NCBI RefSeq assembly: GCF_028712165.1 | Contig: NZ_JAQTQR010000077.1 | Coordinates: forward strand, 1 to 12,358 | DNA length: 12,358 nucleotides | Direction of reading: 5' to 3' | Origin: Sulfuricurvum sp. | GTDB taxonomy: Bacteria > Campylobacterota > Campylobacteria > Campylobacterales > Sulfurimonadaceae | In this document: positions 728 to 9,944 of the stretch, piece after piece | Layout: each line of letters opens with the position of its first letter | Position numbering within the stretch: the stretch's first letter is position 1 | Notes under the pieces: model-generated | What the model saw: the letters and a program-made list of their open reading frames with translations, nothing else | Database searches by the model: none | What the model was told of the DNA's origin: nothing | Position numbers and translations under genes: made by a program

Positions 728-1324
728 TTAATTTAGGTCGCCGTCTTTCCAATACTTTGTCCCCTGAATCGTTGCCTGAAGTGCCAGACCGTTTTGGGTC
801 AATTTATAGAGACGAATGCCCGGTGCAACCGTTATAGCCGCTCCGTATGCATCACCTTTGTCTGCCAGCTTTGCAGCGGCATCGGCTTGTGCATTGGCTT
901 CCCATCCTTTATTGACGAACTGATCAAACACCTCTTTGTCTTTAAAGAGGAATACTGCCCGAAAATCTTTTATACCGAGTCCGAATCCTGCTCCTCCGGA
1001 GGCCATATTCATGTAGATATTTTTTCCAGAACCATTGACATGAGCCATTCCGGTACCCCCCTCTGCGGAGAGGAGAATCAGGTTTACACCGACATTGCTA
1101 AAAGTCGCATAGCCGTAGGAATTGGCAATCATCTCCTTGGCTTCAGGTGCATGTTTATAGAGCAGTTGAAGCGTTTCATCGCTCGATTGGAGACGATTTG
1201 CACGTTGTTCTTCAATCGTTTTGCCGCTCCAGAAACCCGAAAACATAATTACGGCTGCAATGGCCGCTATCGTCATCCATATTGATCGGCTTACTGACAC
1301 CGATTTACATTGTAATTGGTTCAA
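728..1324 (-). CDS. Secreted SYLF/DUF500 (Ysc84-like) domain protein
   Basis: 198-aa ORF. Position 1322-1324 is a TTG start preceded by a strong SD (AAGGAG, 6-nt spacer). The N-terminal hydrophobic segment TIAAIAAVIMFSGF is a likely signal or anchor. The body (GTGMAHVNGSGKNIYMNMASGGAGFGLGIKDF...WEANAQADAAAKLADKG...GLALQATIQGT) matches the Gly-rich pattern of SYLF/DUF500 domains. Confidence 0.55.
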   Translation of the reverse strand: MNQLQCKSVSVSRSIWMTIAAIAAVIMFSGFWSGKTIEEQRANRLQSSDETLQLLYKHAPEAKEMIANSYGYATFSNVGVNLILLSAEGGTGMAHVNGSGKNIYMNMASGGAGFGLGIKDFRAVFLFKDKEVFDQFVNKGWEANAQADAAAKLADKGDAYGAAITVAPGIRLYKLTQNGLALQATIQGTKYWKDGDLN

Positions 1325-1855: not shown

Positions 1856-2389
1856 TTATAACAGTGCTTTTATATCCTCTTCGATTTCTTCAGGGGTCGT
1901 CGCCGGAGCATAGCGAGTGATTACTTTTCCATGACGGTCAACGAGGAATTTGGTAAAGTTCCATTTGATCGCTTCGCTTCCTAAAATCCCGGGAGCCTGT
2001 TGTTTGAGATAGCGATAGAGGGGATGGGTATTGTCTCCGTTAACGTCGATTTTGGCAAACATCGGAAACGTCACACCATAATCGATTCGGCAAAAATTTT
2101 CGATCTCCGGTTCGCTGAGGGGTTCTTGAGATGCAAATTGGTTGCAAGGGAAACCCAGTACGACCAGTCCAATGTCTTTGTAGGTACGATACAGTTTTTC
2201 CAGGCCGGCAAATTGGGGTGTAAATCCGCATTTGCTGGCTGTATTGACGATGAGCATCACTTTGCCGCGATACGGCTCTAATGTGCTTTTTTCCTTATGA
2301 ATGGTTAGAACTTCGAAATCATAGATACTTTTTTCAGCTGTTGACATAAGAGTACTCCATAAAGCGATTAGAATCAGTAAAACTTTCAT
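1856..2389 (-). CDS. Glutathione peroxidase (Cys-type, BtuE/Gpx family)
   Basis: 177 aa with LIVNTASKCGFTPQ (peroxidatic Cys, not Sec), LGFPCNQF and WNFTKFLV, which are canonical Gpx motifs. Start ATG 2387-2389 overlaps the encapsulin stop (ATGA), giving an N-terminal signal-peptide-like segment MKVLLILIALWSTLMSTA. An alternative ATG at 2345-2347 (Met15) with SD GGAG (7-nt spacer) would give a cytoplasmic BtuE-length protein. Confidence 0.9.
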   Translation of the reverse strand: MKVLLILIALWSTLMSTAEKSIYDFEVLTIHKEKSTLEPYRGKVMLIVNTASKCGFTPQFAGLEKLYRTYKDIGLVVLGFPCNQFASQEPLSEPEIENFCRIDYGVTFPMFAKIDVNGDNTHPLYRYLKQQAPGILGSEAIKWNFTKFLVDRHGKVITRYAPATTPEEIEEDIKALL

Positions 2390-3183
2390 AGTGTGATCAG
2401 AACTGCCGCTTCCGGATTGATAATACGGAAGGTACAGCTTTCGGTTAAAAACAGAGAGTAGCTGTCGTCTTTTTCTCCGGTATATCCGATACTGACATCC
2501 AGTCCGTTATAAAGGACAAAATCTCCTCCCCGCTGGGATAGAGCTAGAATCTTGTCGTCTCCGATCGATTCGCAAACGACAAAGAAGTTTGCTCCAATCA
2601 GTGTTTCCAGACGGCTTTTGACACTGACGCCCCCTTCGCTCTCTGCCACCATCTTAATCAGTGTCGCGGTAGAGAGGACAAGTTTATAAGGACCTTCTAC
2701 AAATTCGGCACCGAATGCCGCAATCATAGCTGCAACCGCATCGATCAGTCCTTTTGTATTTTTGGCATGTATCGGTTTACGAGGGATTCTTTTCAAAATT
2801 CCTTCGATCTCCACTTCTTTCAATCCATCCAGGATGAGAGAATTTTCGACGGAACTAAAATGGTTAGAAACTTTTTTAAAGATCGAATCGTCAAAATCGG
2901 GCTTATCGCGTTTAAATGCTTCGACGATCGATTTAGGCAAGTCAAAATCGTATCGCATTTCAACCATTCTGAGCGGCTCCCTTGCCGATAATGTCAGATT
3001 TTCGGCGGAGGAGAGTGTTTTCAGGTTACCTGTGGGTATTGCATCGGTTTCAAAAGGTACGGGGGTAAATCCGACCAAAGAGCGAAGCTTGAGGCGTTGG
3101 CTCAAGAGCGGGGTAAAAACTGCGTCAATCTGTGTCCATACTGCCGGTGCGATAGGAGAGGTCTCTCGGTTTAAAAATTTCAT
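2386..3183 (-). CDS. Encapsulin nanocompartment shell protein (Family 1, HK97-fold, Linocin_M18-like)
   Basis: 265 aa. The N-terminus MKFLNRETSPIAPAVWTQID and C-terminus GGDFVLYNGLDVSIGYTGEKDDSYSLFLTESCTFRIINPEAAVLITL align closely, from memory, with Thermotoga maritima encapsulin (MEFLKRSFAPLTEKQW... [47 protein letters not shown]). Length and gene context (cargo gene immediately upstream) are canonical. SD AAGGAG sits 6 nt before the ATG. Confidence 0.92.
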   Translation of the reverse strand: MKFLNRETSPIAPAVWTQIDAVFTPLLSQRLKLRSLVGFTPVPFETDAIPTGNLKTLSSAENLTLSAREPLRMVEMRYDFDLPKSIVEAFKRDKPDFDDSIFKKVSNHFSSVENSLILDGLKEVEIEGILKRIPRKPIHAKNTKGLIDAVAAMIAAFGAEFVEGPYKLVLSTATLIKMVAESEGGVSVKSRLETLIGANFFVVCESIGDDKILALSQRGGDFVLYNGLDVSIGYTGEKDDSYSLFLTESCTFRIINPEAAVLITL

Positions 3184-3193
3184 TGTCGGCTCC

Positions 3194-3568
3194 TTAGCTA
3201 TTGCTTCCGATTTTTAATGTCCCTGAGGATGGTGTAGCAGGGGGTGTATCGGTTTGAGTTGTTTGATCCGCTACTGCGGACTCCTGTACTACGATATCAC
3301 CGCTCGAGAAGAGAAACTTTTGCATCATCGCATCCCACACCGGAGAATTGCGTCTAAGCCACTCCAGCCCCATGCATGCGTGTTCTATCTCTTCGTCACG
3401 GTTATGTTCCATGATTGCTTTTGCAGCAGGATCCGTTGCTGCTTCGGCACGCTGGTTATACCAATCTATTGCTTCGAGCTCTTCCATCGTGCTCTCTATA
3501 ATACGATGATAATCTTTTGTACTTTCCGAAAGTAAATTTGGATCTTCGTGAAAACCTTGGTCTGCCAT
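3194..3568 (-). CDS. Encapsulated ferritin-like protein (EncFtn) cargo with C-terminal cargo-loading peptide
   Basis: 124 aa. The core MEELEAIDWYNQRAEAATDP...HNRDEEIEHACMGLEWLRRN matches the EncFtn ferroxidase-centre pattern (Glu, Glu, His ligands). A flexible Thr/Pro/Ser linker follows, then SSGTLKIGSNS at the C-terminus, matching the Family-1 encapsulin targeting consensus (GSLKIGSL-like). SD AAAGGAG sits 5 nt before the ATG. Confidence 0.9.
   Translation of the reverse strand: MADQGFHEDPNLLSESTKDYHRIIESTMEELEAIDWYNQRAEAATDPAAKAIMEHNRDEEIEHACMGLEWLRRNSPVWDAMMQKFLFSSGDIVVQESAVADQTTQTDTPPATPSSGTLKIGSNS
3197..3229 (-). other. Cargo-loading (targeting) peptide coding segment at the EncFtn C-terminus
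   Basis: The last about 11 codons encode SSGTLKIGSNS. The GxLKIG core is the conserved motif that docks cargo to the encapsulin shell interior. Confidence 0.8.
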
Positions 3569-3810
3569 TGTCGCTCCTTTTGGTTTAATCCTTAGGCTTC
3601 AATGGTACAGCTCTAAAATAACTTAAGTCAATAGACTTAGAGAAGATATGTTTTTATTTATTTTTTTTTAAGAAAGTGATTCTTATAGATGAAAATTTAG
3701 AAATTGAAGTAAAAAGTTTAGGGTATATTTGTATAGATGTCTTATACTTTTTTTTAGATAAACTAGTTATATTTTTAATAGATTTGAAATGGTGAGAGAA
3801 AAGGAATGCG

Positions 3811-4227
3811 ATGAAAGAGCTGAATTTAACTGATTTGATGCTCACATTCGGACAAGATATCAAAATGGCTCTGTATACGCTGGAGAGATATAACGTTGAG
3901 GCCAATTTAGCTTTGATCGCCTGTGATGATTACGATGTTGATAAAACCCATCTCATAGAGAGTGTACGACAAAGCGATATCGCAAAAAAAATCAATGGTC
4001 ATTATATTGCGGTACTCTTTACATTTGTGGACCATGCTAACGCTCGGACGGCTTTGGAAAAATTGATTTTCAGCTATCACCAATATCAGCTCAAAGGGAG
4101 TTTGGTAATGTTAAAAAAAGGGGAAACTGTTGAATCCGTTTGTGAGCGATTGTTGCAAGCTAATAACGTGGTTCATCGAGATCCTGATAATCAAATTCTT
4201 GATGAGTTTGATCACCCTGTTGTCTAA
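3811..4227 (+). CDS. Hypothetical 138-aa cytoplasmic protein, possible degenerate GGDEF-like fold
   Basis: ATG at 3811 with SD AAGGA (about 5-nt spacer), divergent from encFtn. By eye, LALIACDDYD, INGHYIAVLFTFVDHANARTALEKL and ETVESVCERLLQANNV are collinear with the DxD, GGDEF-strand and C-terminal helix segments of GGDEF domains. The GGDEF motif itself is absent. Confidence 0.4.
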   Translation: MKELNLTDLMLTFGQDIKMALYTLERYNVEANLALIACDDYDVDKTHLIESVRQSDIAKKINGHYIAVLFTFVDHANARTALEKLIFSYHQYQLKGSLVMLKKGETVESVCERLLQANNVVHRDPDNQILDEFDHPVV

Positions 4228-5453: not shown

Positions 5454-5470
5454 TCTACATTCCTTTTTTT
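5444..5470 (+). terminator. Putative rho-independent terminator (weak stem plus T7 run)
   Basis: AGGAA (5444-5448) pairs with TTCCT (5460-5464) around an 11-nt loop, followed by TTTTTTT (5464-5470). The stem overlaps the last codons and stop of the 5073-5453 gene. It is short and AT-rich, hence the low confidence. Confidence 0.3.
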
Positions 5471-7298
5471 ACCAGGAACATACACGATTCCGACCGAGCT
5501 CTTTGGCCTGATAGAGCGCTTTATCGGCTTGCTCAAATAAAGTATCGAAGTCTACACCGTCATTTTTCGGAGTGCTGACCCCGAAAGAACAGGTAATGTG
5601 TTCGATTGTAGAAAAAAGATGTTCTTCGATACTGAGGCGGATTTTGTCTGCGATGCGTTCAGCGAGAGTTATATCAAGAGTTCGGATGATGACAATAAAT
5701 TCTTCTCCACCCCAGCGTGCGACTATATCATTTTCCCGCATGATCTTTTTAAGCAAGATTGCGAGTTCTTTCAGGACACTGTCTCCTACCGCATGTCCGA
5801 ACGTATCGTTGATCGGTTTAAATTTGTCGATATCGATAATAATGACAGAAATCTGTTGGAGAAAGGGAGGCGTTGTATCGATGTGTTCCATTAGCCCACG
5901 GCGATTTAGCAGGGTAGTGAGCGGGTCTCGTTGTGCAGACGAACGGAGCAATGTATTATTATTTTTGAGTTCAACCTGTTTGTGATGGACTGTTTCGAGA
6001 AGATAATTGAAAAAGCGTGCAACGATGCCGACTTCCGTATCGCGCTCTTCATAGACTTTGGTCTGCAGATTCCCTGTCTTCATAATACGGATAATGCTGT
6101 CGATGGTTTCTACCCACGGGAGCCTTGCTTGATGTTCCGTTACATTCAGCCCGATTACTTCATTTCGGCCGGAGACACGAAGAGCGTTGAAACGATTTAA
6201 AATAAGAAAGAGGATAATTCCGCTTCCGAAAGCAAAAACGAATGCGCTGACGATACCGAGTGATTGCACGCCTATCAACTCCATGCGGCTCATTCCCTCA
6301 TGCAGCGGAGCAAAAAGTCCTACCGCAAATGTCCCCCATACACCGGAAAATCCATGGATACCTACTACACTGAGCGGATCGTCAATATGAAATTTTTTGA
6401 GTAGCAGCTGATCGGAAAAATACATGATAAAGGCTGAGACAAATCCGACAAACGCCGCTTCGAGTGTTGTCAAATCGGCACATCCCGCCGTAATGCCAAC
6501 CAGTCCGGAAATGATCCCGAAACTAAACAGTTCCACTCCGATCCCTTTTTTCAAAAAAAGGCTGATGAGATATGCGCCGAAACCGCCGAATGAACCTGCG
6601 ATCAGTGTGTTGAGGAGGATAATGCTCACCGAGGAGTTAAAAGCGAGGAGGCTTCCGGCATTAAAGGCAAACCATGCGAACCAGAGGATAAAGACTCCGA
6701 ATACAATAAAGTTGTGGTTACTAGGGGCAAAATTGCTGATCTTACCTTTTCGAAATCTCCCCAGACGAGGCCCTAACGTGATGGCACCGGCGAGCCCTAT
6801 CCATGCCCCCATCGAATGGACGACCGTCGAACCGGCAAAATCGATAAATCCCATTTGTTTCAGCCAGCCCTGAGCACTCCATGCCCAATGTCCGACGATC
6901 GGATAGATCAAGGAAATGACGATGATAGAGACAACGACGTAGCCGTTGAATTTCATCCGTTCTGCAACGGCACCGGAGACGATAGTGATCGAAGTAGCCG
7001 CAAACATGGACTCAAAGAAAAAGAAGCCGTTTTCAGCCGGATTACTGCCGTCAATGAGAAATCCGCTTGTCCCTACGATTCCGTTGAAATCATTCCCGAA
7101 CATCAACCCAAAACCGATCACCCAGAAACACATGACACCGAAAATGGTATCGATGAGATTTTTCATAGCGACATTGATCGTATTTTTTGAGCGGACGGTG
7201 CCGGTTTCAACCATAGCAAAACCGAGTTGCATGGTAAAAATCAAGATACCGCTTAAAACGATCCAAAGCAGGTCAATATTGCTATATTCGCTCATCAA
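5469..7298 (-). CDS. Ammonium transporter (Amt/MEP) fused to C-terminal GGDEF diguanylate cyclase domain
   Basis: 609 aa. The N-terminal about 400 aa are polytopic with Amt-family signatures (MQLGFAMVETGTVRSKNTINVAMKNLIDT..., Gly/Phe-rich TM helices). The C-terminus has DPLTTLLNRRGL, IIDIDKFKPINDTFGH and RWGGEEFIVII (intact GGEEF). RENDIVARW places an RxxD I-site at the canonical spacing. The start is TTG 7296-7298 or the adjacent ATG 7293-7295. Confidence 0.85.
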   Translation of the reverse strand: MMSEYSNIDLLWIVLSGILIFTMQLGFAMVETGTVRSKNTINVAMKNLIDTIFGVMCFWVIGFGLMFGNDFNGIVGTSGFLIDGSNPAENGFFFFESMFAATSITIVSGAVAERMKFNGYVVVSIIVISLIYPIVGHWAWSAQGWLKQMGFIDFAGSTVVHSMGAWIGLAGAITLGPRLGRFRKGKISNFAPSNHNFIVFGVFILWFAWFAFNAGSLLAFNSSVSIILLNTLIAGSFGGFGAYLISLFLKKGIGVELFSFGIISGLVGITAGCADLTTLEAAFVGFVSAFIMYFSDQLLLKKFHIDDPLSVVGIHGFSGVWGTFAVGLFAPLHEGMSRMELIGVQSLGIVSAFVFAFGSGIILFLILNRFNALRVSGRNEVIGLNVTEHQARLPWVETIDSIIRIMKTGNLQTKVYEERDTEVGIVARFFNYLLETVHHKQVELKNNNTLLRSSAQRDPLTTLLNRRGLMEHIDTTPPFLQQISVIIIDIDKFKPINDTFGHAVGDSVLKELAILLKKIMRENDIVARWGGEEFIVIIRTLDITLAERIADKIRLSIEEHLFSTIEHITCSFGVSTPKNDGVDFDTLFEQADKALYQAKELGRNRVCSW

Positions 7299-7508: not shown

Positions 7509-8429
7509 ATGTCTGTACCATATTCCATAAAAACGCTCACTCCTGCCGAAGCTCTTAATCTGATCGAAAAGGGGGCAAAGATCCTTGACCCGATAACCCC
7601 TGAAGCGTATGAGTGTTATCACATCAAAGATGCAATAAATGCCTGCGTCTATGAAGTTTCTTTCTTACAAAAAATTCCCGAACTTTTGCCTGACAAAACG
7701 GTACCCATCATTGTATACGCTAACAGTGCTACATCGCATGAATCCCTTGTCGCCGCCCAAAAGCTCGAAAAACTCGGTTACGGCAGTGTTTATGTGGTAG
7801 AAGGGGGGATTGAAGCACTGGTGCAAGCAGGTTGTATGAGAGAAGGCTCAGCAGACTCACTCTACGAACAGCTCGAATATACATCGGGAAGCTATACAGC
7901 TCAGGCGGAGAGTGCTTTTATCGGTTGGACCGGGCGCAATGCCAACGGTAAACATTATGGTACTGTTAGTTTGAAAGAGGGGGTCATGCATATTTACGGA
8001 GAGAATGTCTATGGTAGTTTTACCGTCGATATGACCGACATAACCGACCTCGATCTTGAGGATGCCTCGTTTGCCAATATGCTTATCACACATTTGAGCT
8101 CTGATGACTTTTTCTCGGTTCAGTCGTTTCCCGAAGCAACGTTTAGCATCCATAGTGCGAAACGTTCTCCCGAAGCCACTGTCAGTTCTGTAAATCACAT
8201 TCTGGAAGGATCTCTCAGTCTCTGCGGCATTACCAAAAAACTCAACATTCCTGCTACCTTTGTTCAAAGCGACACCAATACTTTGGTACTTGAAGCCCAT
8301 TTCGATTTTGATCGTACTCTTTGGGGAATCGCCTACGGTTCAGCACATTTTTTCCGTTTTCTAGGGATGCATGTGGTTTTCGATCCTGTCAGTATTGAAG
8401 TACGTATTGTGTTAAAAATCGCCGATTAA
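7509..8429 (+). CDS. Rhodanese-homology domain (catalytic Cys replaced) fused to YceI-like polyisoprenoid-binding domain
   Basis: 306 aa with SD AAGGA 7 nt upstream. Residues about 1-105 have a rhodanese fold pattern (IIVYANSATSHESLVAAQKLEKLGYGSVYVVEGGIEAL), but the active-site loop has Ala where the Cys is expected. Residues about 120-306 match YceI (HLSSDDFFSVQSFPEATF, LEGSLSLCGITKKLNIPATF, FDFDRTLWGI). There is no signal peptide. Confidence 0.75.
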   Translation: MSVPYSIKTLTPAEALNLIEKGAKILDPITPEAYECYHIKDAINACVYEVSFLQKIPELLPDKTVPIIVYANSATSHESLVAAQKLEKLGYGSVYVVEGGIEALVQAGCMREGSADSLYEQLEYTSGSYTAQAESAFIGWTGRNANGKHYGTVSLKEGVMHIYGENVYGSFTVDMTDITDLDLEDASFANMLITHLSSDDFFSVQSFPEATFSIHSAKRSPEATVSSVNHILEGSLSLCGITKKLNIPATFVQSDTNTLVLEAHFDFDRTLWGIAYGSAHFFRFLGMHVVFDPVSIEVRIVLKIAD

Positions 8430-8535
8430 AAAAGGGAAGGAATTTCACTTTATCAGATTTTTTCATCATATAGAGCCGATTGGTTACTTTAAACGTGTAT
8501 GATTCCGATTAACTTTTAATTGGCGGGTGGAGAAG

Positions 8536-9003
8536 ATGAAGCTAGTGGTATATTTTTTAGTTTTTGTAGCAATTGTGATACAGTTTATCAGACCGGATTT
8601 TAAAAATCCTGCAGTAGATGAGAATGTTGCGTTAAACGCTGATCCTCACGTTATGAGCGTTCTGAAAACCTCATGTTATGACTGCCATTCCAATGAAACA
8701 AAATACCCTTGGTATCAAAATGTCGCCCCCGTCTCATGGATTATGTCGGATCATATCCAAAGAGGACGCAAAGCACTCGATTTTTCAAATTGGGCCAATA
8801 TAGATCCTAAAGTGAAATTAGAACGGTTACAGCGGGCAACGCAAGTCATCAACAATGATATGATGCCGAAACATGATTATCTTTTGATGCATAAAAATGC
8901 TGTTTTGAATAAAGATAAGAAACAAACACTCGAGAAATTTTTTGATTCACAAATACTGGAATTGGGCGGCTCGACAAGTACTCTGAAAAAATTTAATATT
9001 TAA
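8536..9003 (+). CDS. Membrane-anchored heme-binding domain protein (CxxCH; Haem_bd/PF14376-like)
   Basis: ATG 8536 has SD GGTGGAG about 4-5 nt upstream. The track's 8527 start is an in-frame GTG that is less likely. The N-terminal anchor is MKLVVYFLVFVAIVIQFI. The motif SCYDCHSNETKYPWYQNVAPVSW contains a c-type heme CxxCH site within the conserved block of the small haem-binding domain family. Confidence 0.6.
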   Translation: MKLVVYFLVFVAIVIQFIRPDFKNPAVDENVALNADPHVMSVLKTSCYDCHSNETKYPWYQNVAPVSWIMSDHIQRGRKALDFSNWANIDPKVKLERLQRATQVINNDMMPKHDYLLMHKNAVLNKDKKQTLEKFFDSQILELGGSTSTLKKFNI

Positions 9004-9587: not shown

Positions 9588-9944
9588 TTATCCCTCTAAA
9601 AATGCTTCCCATTTCAACGGATTCCAATAATATGAGGCGGGAGAAACTTCATGTGGTACAGCTGGAATCGGCGTTGATGGAGGGATTGAGAGAATCGGCG
9701 GAGCAGGCGTAAGCTCCGGAATCGGAAGCCTCGGATCATTGGAAGCAGCATCCAGATACGCTATGCACAGACCTCTTTTATCACGAATAATACCATTCTG
9801 AATTACTCCGAGATGCTGAGCGTCGTGGTAGGTGAAAACATGACTGTCGCGTATAAACGCTCTGCAGCATTTTTTACGATCATAAATGACACCATTATAA
9901 AGCCATCCGATTGTCCGTCCGTGACGGTTAAAGATAGGATTCAT
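9588..9944 (-). CDS. 4-fold beta-flower-like repeat protein with Pro-rich C-terminal tail
   Basis: Strong SD GGGAGGT lies upstream of the ATG. Four roughly 16-aa tandem repeats with a G-x-hydrophobic / hydrophobic-x-D/N-x-x-G periodicity (IFNRHGRTIGWLYNGV / IYDRKKCCRAFIRDSHV / FTYHDAQHLGVIQNGI / IRDKRGLCIAYLDAAS) resemble 4-fold beta-flower mini-domains. The tail is PIPELTPAPPILSIPPSTPIPAVP. Confidence 0.45.
   Translation of the reverse strand: MNPIFNRHGRTIGWLYNGVIYDRKKCCRAFIRDSHVFTYHDAQHLGVIQNGIIRDKRGLCIAYLDAASNDPRLPIPELTPAPPILSIPPSTPIPAVPHEVSPASYYWNPLKWEAFLEG

Follow-up and report, generated by a model that had tools for sequence, protein, structure and literature searches.

We describe here an adjacent pair of genes, encoding an EncFtn cargo protein and an encapsulin shell protein, in a 12,358-nucleotide stretch of DNA from Sulfuricurvum sp. 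(contig NZ_JAQTQR010000077.1 of assembly GCF_028712165.1; the whole stretch is hereafter called the window). In all likelihood, this pair is a functional family 1 (classical) encapsulin system for iron mineralization in a Sulfuricurvum-type member of the Campylobacterota. An initial annotation of the window had proposed a family 1 encapsulin operon with an EncFtn cargo, and this identification is supported by the family-specific cut-offs, the ferroxidase residues, the fold of the shell and two of the three residues named for contact with the cargo peptide, with no evidence to the contrary. Every test assigns it to the family 1 encapsulins of the classical EncFtn/Flp class, so that it represents an ordinary example of a known system; the only departures from the textbook arrangement are a shell with glycine at position 38 paired with a targeting peptide that has no basic residue beyond its Ile-Gly core and, at the species level, putative coupling to a peroxidase gene.

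The two proteins score above the curated thresholds of the corresponding profile hidden Markov models. EncFtn matches the Pfam EncFtn-like family PF22277 (8.3e-39, 131.7 bits; cut-off 27) and the NCBIfam family TIGR04535, 'encapsulin-associated ferritin-like protein' (144.4 bits; cut-off 125), and the shell protein matches Pfam Linocin_M18, PF04454, over residues 1–251 (1e-40, 140 bits; cut-off 24.3) and the NCBIfam equivalog NF041155 (encap_f1, 'family 1 encapsulin nanocompartment shell protein') over residues 4–262 (148.5 bits; cut-off 100). Pfam E-values of this order, together with NCBIfam scores above the cut-offs, exclude a chance match. Among solved structures, the best sequence match of the shell is the Thermotoga maritima encapsulin 3DKT (E 1.1e-33), with residues 1–263 aligned end to end on residues 1–263, and those of the cargo are the EncFtn proteins of Haliangium ochraceum (7OE2; 6.6e-32) and Rhodospirillum rubrum (5DA5; 1.3e-28). 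Neither gene contains a frameshift, including the shell gene, for which a frameshift would have spoken against the initial annotation.

Because the HK97 fold is common to encapsulins and phage capsids, and one distant homologue of the shell (P0048) yields a weak Phage_capsid Pfam match, the shell gene could conceivably encode the major capsid protein of a prophage remnant with a ferritin-like neighbour by accident. This we consider vanishingly improbable: the protein scores above the cut-off of the family 1 encapsulin equivalog, all genes around it are cellular, with no terminase, portal or protease among them, the gene upstream of it carries a conserved targeting peptide, and the EncFtn–shell pairing is retained across genera in differing genomic contexts. 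Prophage-capsid and bacteriocin interpretations of the shell were both rejected on the grounds of gene context and the curated equivalog match.

The translated open reading frame of the cargo contains, exactly as initially annotated, the segment MEELEAIDWY...HNRDEEIEH and the terminus ...SSGTLKIGSNS. It aligns with R. rubrum EncFtn without gaps at an offset of +2, so that Glu32, Glu62 and His65 of the ferroxidase centre and the nearby Tyr39, the roles of which are known from mutagenesis (reviewed in PMC11202242), correspond to E30, E60, H63 and Y37; all four occur both in the window protein and in each of 13 orthologues. Averaged over these orthologues, identity to the window protein is 0.85 in the helical core (residues 1–88), 0.41 in the linker (residues 89–113) and 0.66 in the last 11 residues. 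The linker, rich in Thr, Pro and Gln, differs in sequence and length between orthologues, and the C-terminal pattern G-x-L-x-I-G-x-N-x is kept across the 14 orthologues of the Campylobacterota clade (window included); a tether that varies, ending in a conserved tip, is as expected of a targeting peptide. The C-terminal end aligns with the localization sequence of H. ochraceum (GTLKIGS vs GSLGIGS). Compared with the published core motif GxLGIxxL (PMC8791618), the window peptide, G-T-L-K-I-G-S-N, keeps the G, L and I, with Lys in place of the central Gly and Asn in place of the last Leu, and it shares an L-x-I-G-S core (SGTLKIGSNS) with the peptide SGSLNIGSLK of the Klebsiella pneumoniae DyP encapsulin (PMC10960027). 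Relative to the H. ochraceum and R. rubrum systems, the catalytic residues are kept, the core motif is partly kept and the composition of the linker differs.

The shell monomer was modelled with AlphaFold2 on 35 homologues. The model (mean predicted local distance difference test score, pLDDT, 93.7; predicted template modelling score, pTM, 0.88) includes a helix at residues 13–30 and, in a Foldseek comparison with the PDB, displays the HK97-type encapsulin fold that had been initially assigned to it, with template modelling (TM) scores of 0.92 to 7KQ5, 3DKT and 7ODW and a root-mean-square deviation (rmsd) from 7KQ5 of 2.0 Å. The 27 top-ranking matches in the PDB consist entirely of small family 1 shells (TM 0.84–0.93, rmsd 1.9–2.9 Å), originating from T. 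maritima, B. linens, H. ochraceum (TM 0.92–0.93), mycobacteria, K. pneumoniae, E. coli, A. acidipropionici and an Arthrobacter. The native T=3 and T=4 protomers compared, those of M. xanthus EncA, Q. thermotolerans, B. methanolicus and D. quercicolus, gave TM scores of 0.72–0.82 and rmsd values of 4.2–7.7 Å, with most chains at 6–7.7 Å. [quoted passage not shown]

Assembly of the same system into a particle larger than T=1, of the T=3 or T=4 type, appears quite improbable. Admittedly, no simple sequence motif encodes the T number, only the shell monomer was modelled, and PDB entries document M. xanthus EncA shells of the T=1, T=3, T=4 and tetrahedral types, the outcome varying with mutation and cargo. 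However, the 265-residue shell protein aligns without large indels to the 264-residue T=1 protein of T. maritima, the sequence search of solved structures yielded no T=3 or T=4 shell at E 0.001, and the native T=3/T=4 protomers fit the model far worse than the T=1 protomers do (about 2 Å for the latter). To our knowledge, all unfused EncFtn systems solved to date, namely those of T. maritima, H. ochraceum and R. rubrum, are T=1.

The site that would receive the targeting peptide on the inner face of the shell is largely conserved. In K. pneumoniae, Arg34 and Asp229 are hydrogen-bonded to the peptide backbone and Asp38 forms a salt bridge with its terminal Lys (PMC10960027). We transferred this numbering by gap-free N-terminal sequence alignments and compared the window shell with 124 representatives of 50%-identity clusters (125 aligned sequences altogether). 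Across 35 homologues, both close and distant, R34 and D229 do not vary, and the two positions are R in 124/125 and D in 123/125 aligned shells, respectively. Accordingly, two of the three residues named for peptide contact are present and near-invariant, and the third, residue 38 (window positions 3070–3072, minus strand), is Gly, as it is in the seven closest relatives aligned. Asp or Glu occupies this position in 107 of the 125 sequences, including Asp in T. maritima; an acidic residue is absent in 17/124 representatives (~14%), among them the window's own cluster. The five tabulated peptides that go with a Gly38 shell (those of the window and of the related loci L005–L008) all have no basic residue beyond the Ile-Gly core, and those of L018 and L020 end alike, whereas a basic residue is found in the peptides of seven of the eight Asp38 relatives and is absent in one. 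Judging from these alignments, Gly38 and the lack of a basic residue beyond the Ile-Gly core are consistent with both partners having lost the salt bridge, but the correlation is not statistically meaningful because it probably reflects a single evolutionary event. Given that 17 of the 124 family representatives are likewise non-acidic at this position, we dropped Gly38 as a distinctive feature and treat it as a minor variant.

The relationship to characterized systems can be gauged by comparison with the encapsulins of T. maritima (maritimacin, which has an Flp/EncFtn cargo; 3DKT/7KQ5) and K. pneumoniae (8U50). The former shares with the window the cargo-to-shell gene order, a shell of nearly the same length that aligns over the full length at ~30% identity, and a peptide with two hydrophobic anchors (L and I). 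It differs in that the peptide GGDLGIRK has a Gly hinge between L and I, which in GTLKIGSNS is Lys, and terminal basic residues, which are missing here; in that shell residue 38 is Asp; and in that the host of the window system is a mesophilic member of the Campylobacterota. The K. pneumoniae encapsulin has Arg34, Asp229 and the L-x-I-G-S peptide core in common with the window, but its cargo is DyP rather than EncFtn, and its third anchor, Leu345, is replaced by Asn. Because the window shell has Gly38 and its peptide lacks a terminal Lys, the Asp38–Lys346 bridge of K. pneumoniae is impossible here.

The closest counterparts of the window pair are found in Sulfuricurvum. Two metagenome-assembled genomes at NCBI carry the identical locus, and the nearest named relatives are Sulfuricurvum (82–96% identity), other Campylobacterales and Sulfurovum, which, from the sequences compared, identifies the host as a Sulfuricurvum-type member of the Campylobacterota. 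The EncFtn–shell pair is kept in the 13 related loci examined, and the ratios of nonsynonymous to synonymous substitution rates against relatives (0.03–0.10 for the shell and 0.07–0.13 for the cargo) indicate that both genes are maintained by strong purifying selection. An exhaustive search of the shell against 1.84 billion cluster representatives returned only two clusters with E-values better than 1e-30, and the remaining family 1 shells are ~30% identical to the window shell (about 33% or less), suggesting that the shells of Campylobacterota EncFtn systems form a fairly isolated branch of family 1. Flp cargos belong to the second largest family 1 cargo set, which is present in 23 bacterial phyla (PMC8346489), and the system type is already catalogued and automatically annotated in Sulfuricurvum: the supplement of the 2021 encapsulin catalogue holds FLP systems from one Sulfuricurvum and one Sulfurovum genome (Sulfuricurvum sp. 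RIFOXYD2_FULL_44_160 and Sulfurovum sp. FS08-3; PMC8346489), which share with the window the genus or order, the FLP cargo class and the gene order, and the NCBI name of a 96% homologue is 'family 1 encapsulin nanocompartment shell protein [Sulfuricurvum sp.]'. In the catalogue entry, as in L005, a sorbosone dehydrogenase gene follows the shell gene, whereas in the window's species this place is taken by an overlapping glutathione peroxidase gene. A literature search combining encapsulin with Sulfuricurvum gave no papers.

The initial annotation had located the EncFtn and shell genes correctly but without a strand; the open reading frame list and the raw sequence place both on the minus strand (Table 1). 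The intergenic gap of 10 nt and the separate Shine-Dalgarno sequence of the shell gene, as claimed at the outset, are both seen in the raw sequence. The junction reads TAAGGAGCCGACAATG, and the AAGGAG of the shell gene shares bases with the TAA stop codon of EncFtn. The resulting TAAGGAG is found in six of seven loci (the window and L005–L009), with TAAAGGAG instead in L010. The AAGGAG of the EncFtn gene ends 5 nt before its ATG, and AAGGAGC is invariant in relatives. In an upstream alignment of seven sequences, comprising the window and six Sulfuricurvum-type loci, the TTGA of the putative –35 element does not vary, nor do five of the six –10 positions (TA-CAT).

Table 1. Features of the encapsulin locus and the adjoining peroxidase gene (window coordinates)
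Feature	Coordinates	Strand	Basis
EncFtn cargo gene, 124 aa	3194..3568	-	Pfam PF22277, TIGR04535, alignment to R. rubrum EncFtn, dN/dS (nonsynonymous to synonymous substitution rate ratio)
Shell gene, family 1 encapsulin of 265 aa with HK97 fold; protomer predicted to be of T=1 type	2386..3183	-	PF04454, NF041155, 3DKT match, AlphaFold2, Foldseek, dN/dS
Glutathione-peroxidase-family thiol peroxidase gene, 177 aa	1856..2389	-	PF00255
Targeting-peptide coding region, SSGTLKIGSNS, EncFtn residues 114-124	3197..3229	-	Alignment with H. ochraceum localization sequence, orthologue conservation
Shine-Dalgarno AAGGAG, EncFtn gene	3574..3579	-	Read in sequence
Shine-Dalgarno AAGGAG, shell gene	3190..3195	-	Read in sequence; conserved at junction
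Putative sigma-70-type promoter, TTGACT-18 nt-TACCAT	3602..3631	-	Consensus scan, conservation in relatives

Just upstream of the –35 element lies an AT-rich quasi-palindrome, TTTCTTAAT..AAAAATTAAAAGAAA (window 3650–3675, minus strand), which is well conserved in L005–L008 and L021, whereas its window version is degenerate. An UP element or a binding site for a regulator is conceivable here, but we do not claim an operator. A repeat search of the upstream intergenic region produced short AT-rich matches only and nothing operator-like, although no search dedicated to Fur/PerR boxes was run. Searched in full against Rfam at gathering thresholds, the window showed no RNA family, and hence no riboswitch or small RNA near the operon. 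Among related loci, a Fur-family gene is located divergently upstream of EncFtn in two (L010, 5075–5539, and L016, 1584–1922, both on the minus strand), and a gene for a WrbA-like flavoprotein (FMN reductase) occupies this position in L006 (4831–5442, minus strand), L007, L008 and L021. Such neighbours fit a role in iron metabolism and oxidative stress. At the equivalent position the window carries a 138-aa gene (3811–4227, plus strand) without a family match, which is neither Fur nor WrbA-like.

Downstream, the description of the locus as a clean, unfused two-gene example stands as regards the intact cargo–shell pair but does not take account of a third open reading frame overlapping the stop codon of the shell gene. 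This frame, the ATG of which overlaps the shell TGA as ATGA, matches PF00255 (9e-43) and contains a Cys-type active site, NTASKCGFT. In the long form, the protein has a hydrophobic, signal-peptide-like N-terminus, MKVLLILIALWSTLMSTA..., whereas public gene calls place the start 14 codons later, at 2347, behind its own GGAG, for a product of 163 aa. The long start is favoured because the orthologue in L011 begins at it behind its own AAGGAG, ~5 kb from the encapsulin genes, and in L018, the 96% relative, the hydrophobic leader is retained and the start overlaps the shell stop codon as GTGA. As the next gene after the shell gene, the peroxidase gene is confined to the window's species and the 96% relative; the 89% relative and all others carry other genes there. 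No C-terminal targeting motif is present in the translated peroxidase, which is therefore a neighbour, perhaps an operon partner, and not a cargo.

It is doubtful whether the peroxidase belongs to the system as an integral third component with a functional link, as opposed to having come to lie there recently and by accident. The overlapping start and stop codons, in two versions, suggest translational coupling, and a peroxide-removing enzyme suits the oxidative-stress role of EncFtn systems. Nevertheless, the limited phyletic spread of the adjacency, the separate ribosome-binding site of the L011 orthologue ~5 kb away, the internal start with its own GGAG chosen by gene callers and the lack of a targeting peptide all speak against integration, and an export-signal-like N-terminus would put the enzyme outside the cytoplasm. 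Furthermore, PF00255 is absent from the examined part of the neighbourhood table of the encapsulin catalogue. A literature search for encapsulin, glutathione peroxidase and operon gave a single, unrelated paper. More speculatively, and in our opinion rather improbably, the Sulfuricurvum-type clade might possess a pared-down loading interface, in which loss of Asp38 from the shell and of the terminal basic residue and third hydrophobic anchor from the peptide would leave loading to two hydrophobic contacts, and, in this species, translational coupling to an exported thiol peroxidase might create a three-gene iron and peroxide stress unit, an arrangement undescribed for encapsulins.

For the EncFtn–encapsulin pair itself, we propose the following mechanism. 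A single promoter would drive co-transcription of the EncFtn gene and, 10 nt further on, the shell gene. By analogy with solved homologues, in which it forms decamers, EncFtn would assemble into ferroxidase-active oligomers, with di-iron sites at the subunit interfaces formed by E30, E60 and H63 and with Y37 nearby. The flexible linker would present the C-terminal GTLKIGSNS, the Leu and Ile of which may dock in a hydrophobic pocket that the N-helix and the P-domain form on the shell protomer's inner face; such docking is proposed to capture the cargo during assembly of the predicted T=1 shell. Fe(II) would then enter through the shell pores and be oxidized by EncFtn, yielding a ferric mineral inside the shell, which would store iron and limit Fenton chemistry. 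In this species, translational coupling of a secreted-type thiol peroxidase to the shell gene might further extend the pair into a small iron and peroxide stress operon.

Nothing speaks against the assignment as such; the following points qualify it. A monomer model cannot yield the T number, and the AlphaFold prediction may lean towards T=1, templates of which it learned in large numbers. Position 38 of the shell holds Gly rather than the more common Asp, and two features of the H. ochraceum and K. pneumoniae peptides, a third hydrophobic residue and a basic residue at the terminus, are missing here, so that loading affinity could differ. No Fur-type regulator gene adjoins the operon in the window, where operators of the Fur/PerR type were not specifically sought, and a scan for terminators identified none on the minus strand after the peroxidase gene.

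Apart from the encapsulin locus, several neighbouring genes deserve mention. The window encodes a 609-aa fusion of a complete Amt ammonium transporter (residues 11–391) with a C-terminal GGDEF diguanylate cyclase (residues 455–605) (5469–7298, minus strand), which would tie ammonium sensing or transport to cyclic di-GMP signalling, and a 306-aa protein combining an N-terminal rhodanese with a C-terminal YceI-like domain (7509–8429, plus strand), an unusual pairing in a sulfur oxidizer. A '4-fold beta-flower' protein (9588–9944, minus strand; PF21784, 5e-24) and a Haem_bd-domain protein (8527–9003, plus strand; PF14376, 4e-41) also have counterparts near the encapsulin genes in L006, a locus from a Sulfuricurvum metagenome-assembled genome, in a different order. 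A 198-aa protein (728–1324, minus strand) matches the BPSL1445-family SYLF-domain lipoproteins below the cut-off (58 bits vs 200) and has no Pfam match. In the distant relative L017 (3443–5649, plus strand), the EncFtn–encapsulin pair is directly followed by genes for TIR-domain (ThsB-like) and LD_cluster-domain proteins, which look like an anti-phage defence pair.

Beyond correct annotation, the identification of this locus matters little. It confirms the presence of a classical EncFtn iron-mineralizing nanocompartment in sulfur-oxidizing Campylobacterota of oxic–anoxic interfaces, in the form of a compact and intact gene pair that could be expressed. Besides the species-level joining of the operon to a thiol peroxidase gene, a modest point of interest is the natural combination of a Gly38 shell with a peptide devoid of a basic residue beyond the Ile-Gly core, which could inform the engineering of cargo-loading strength.

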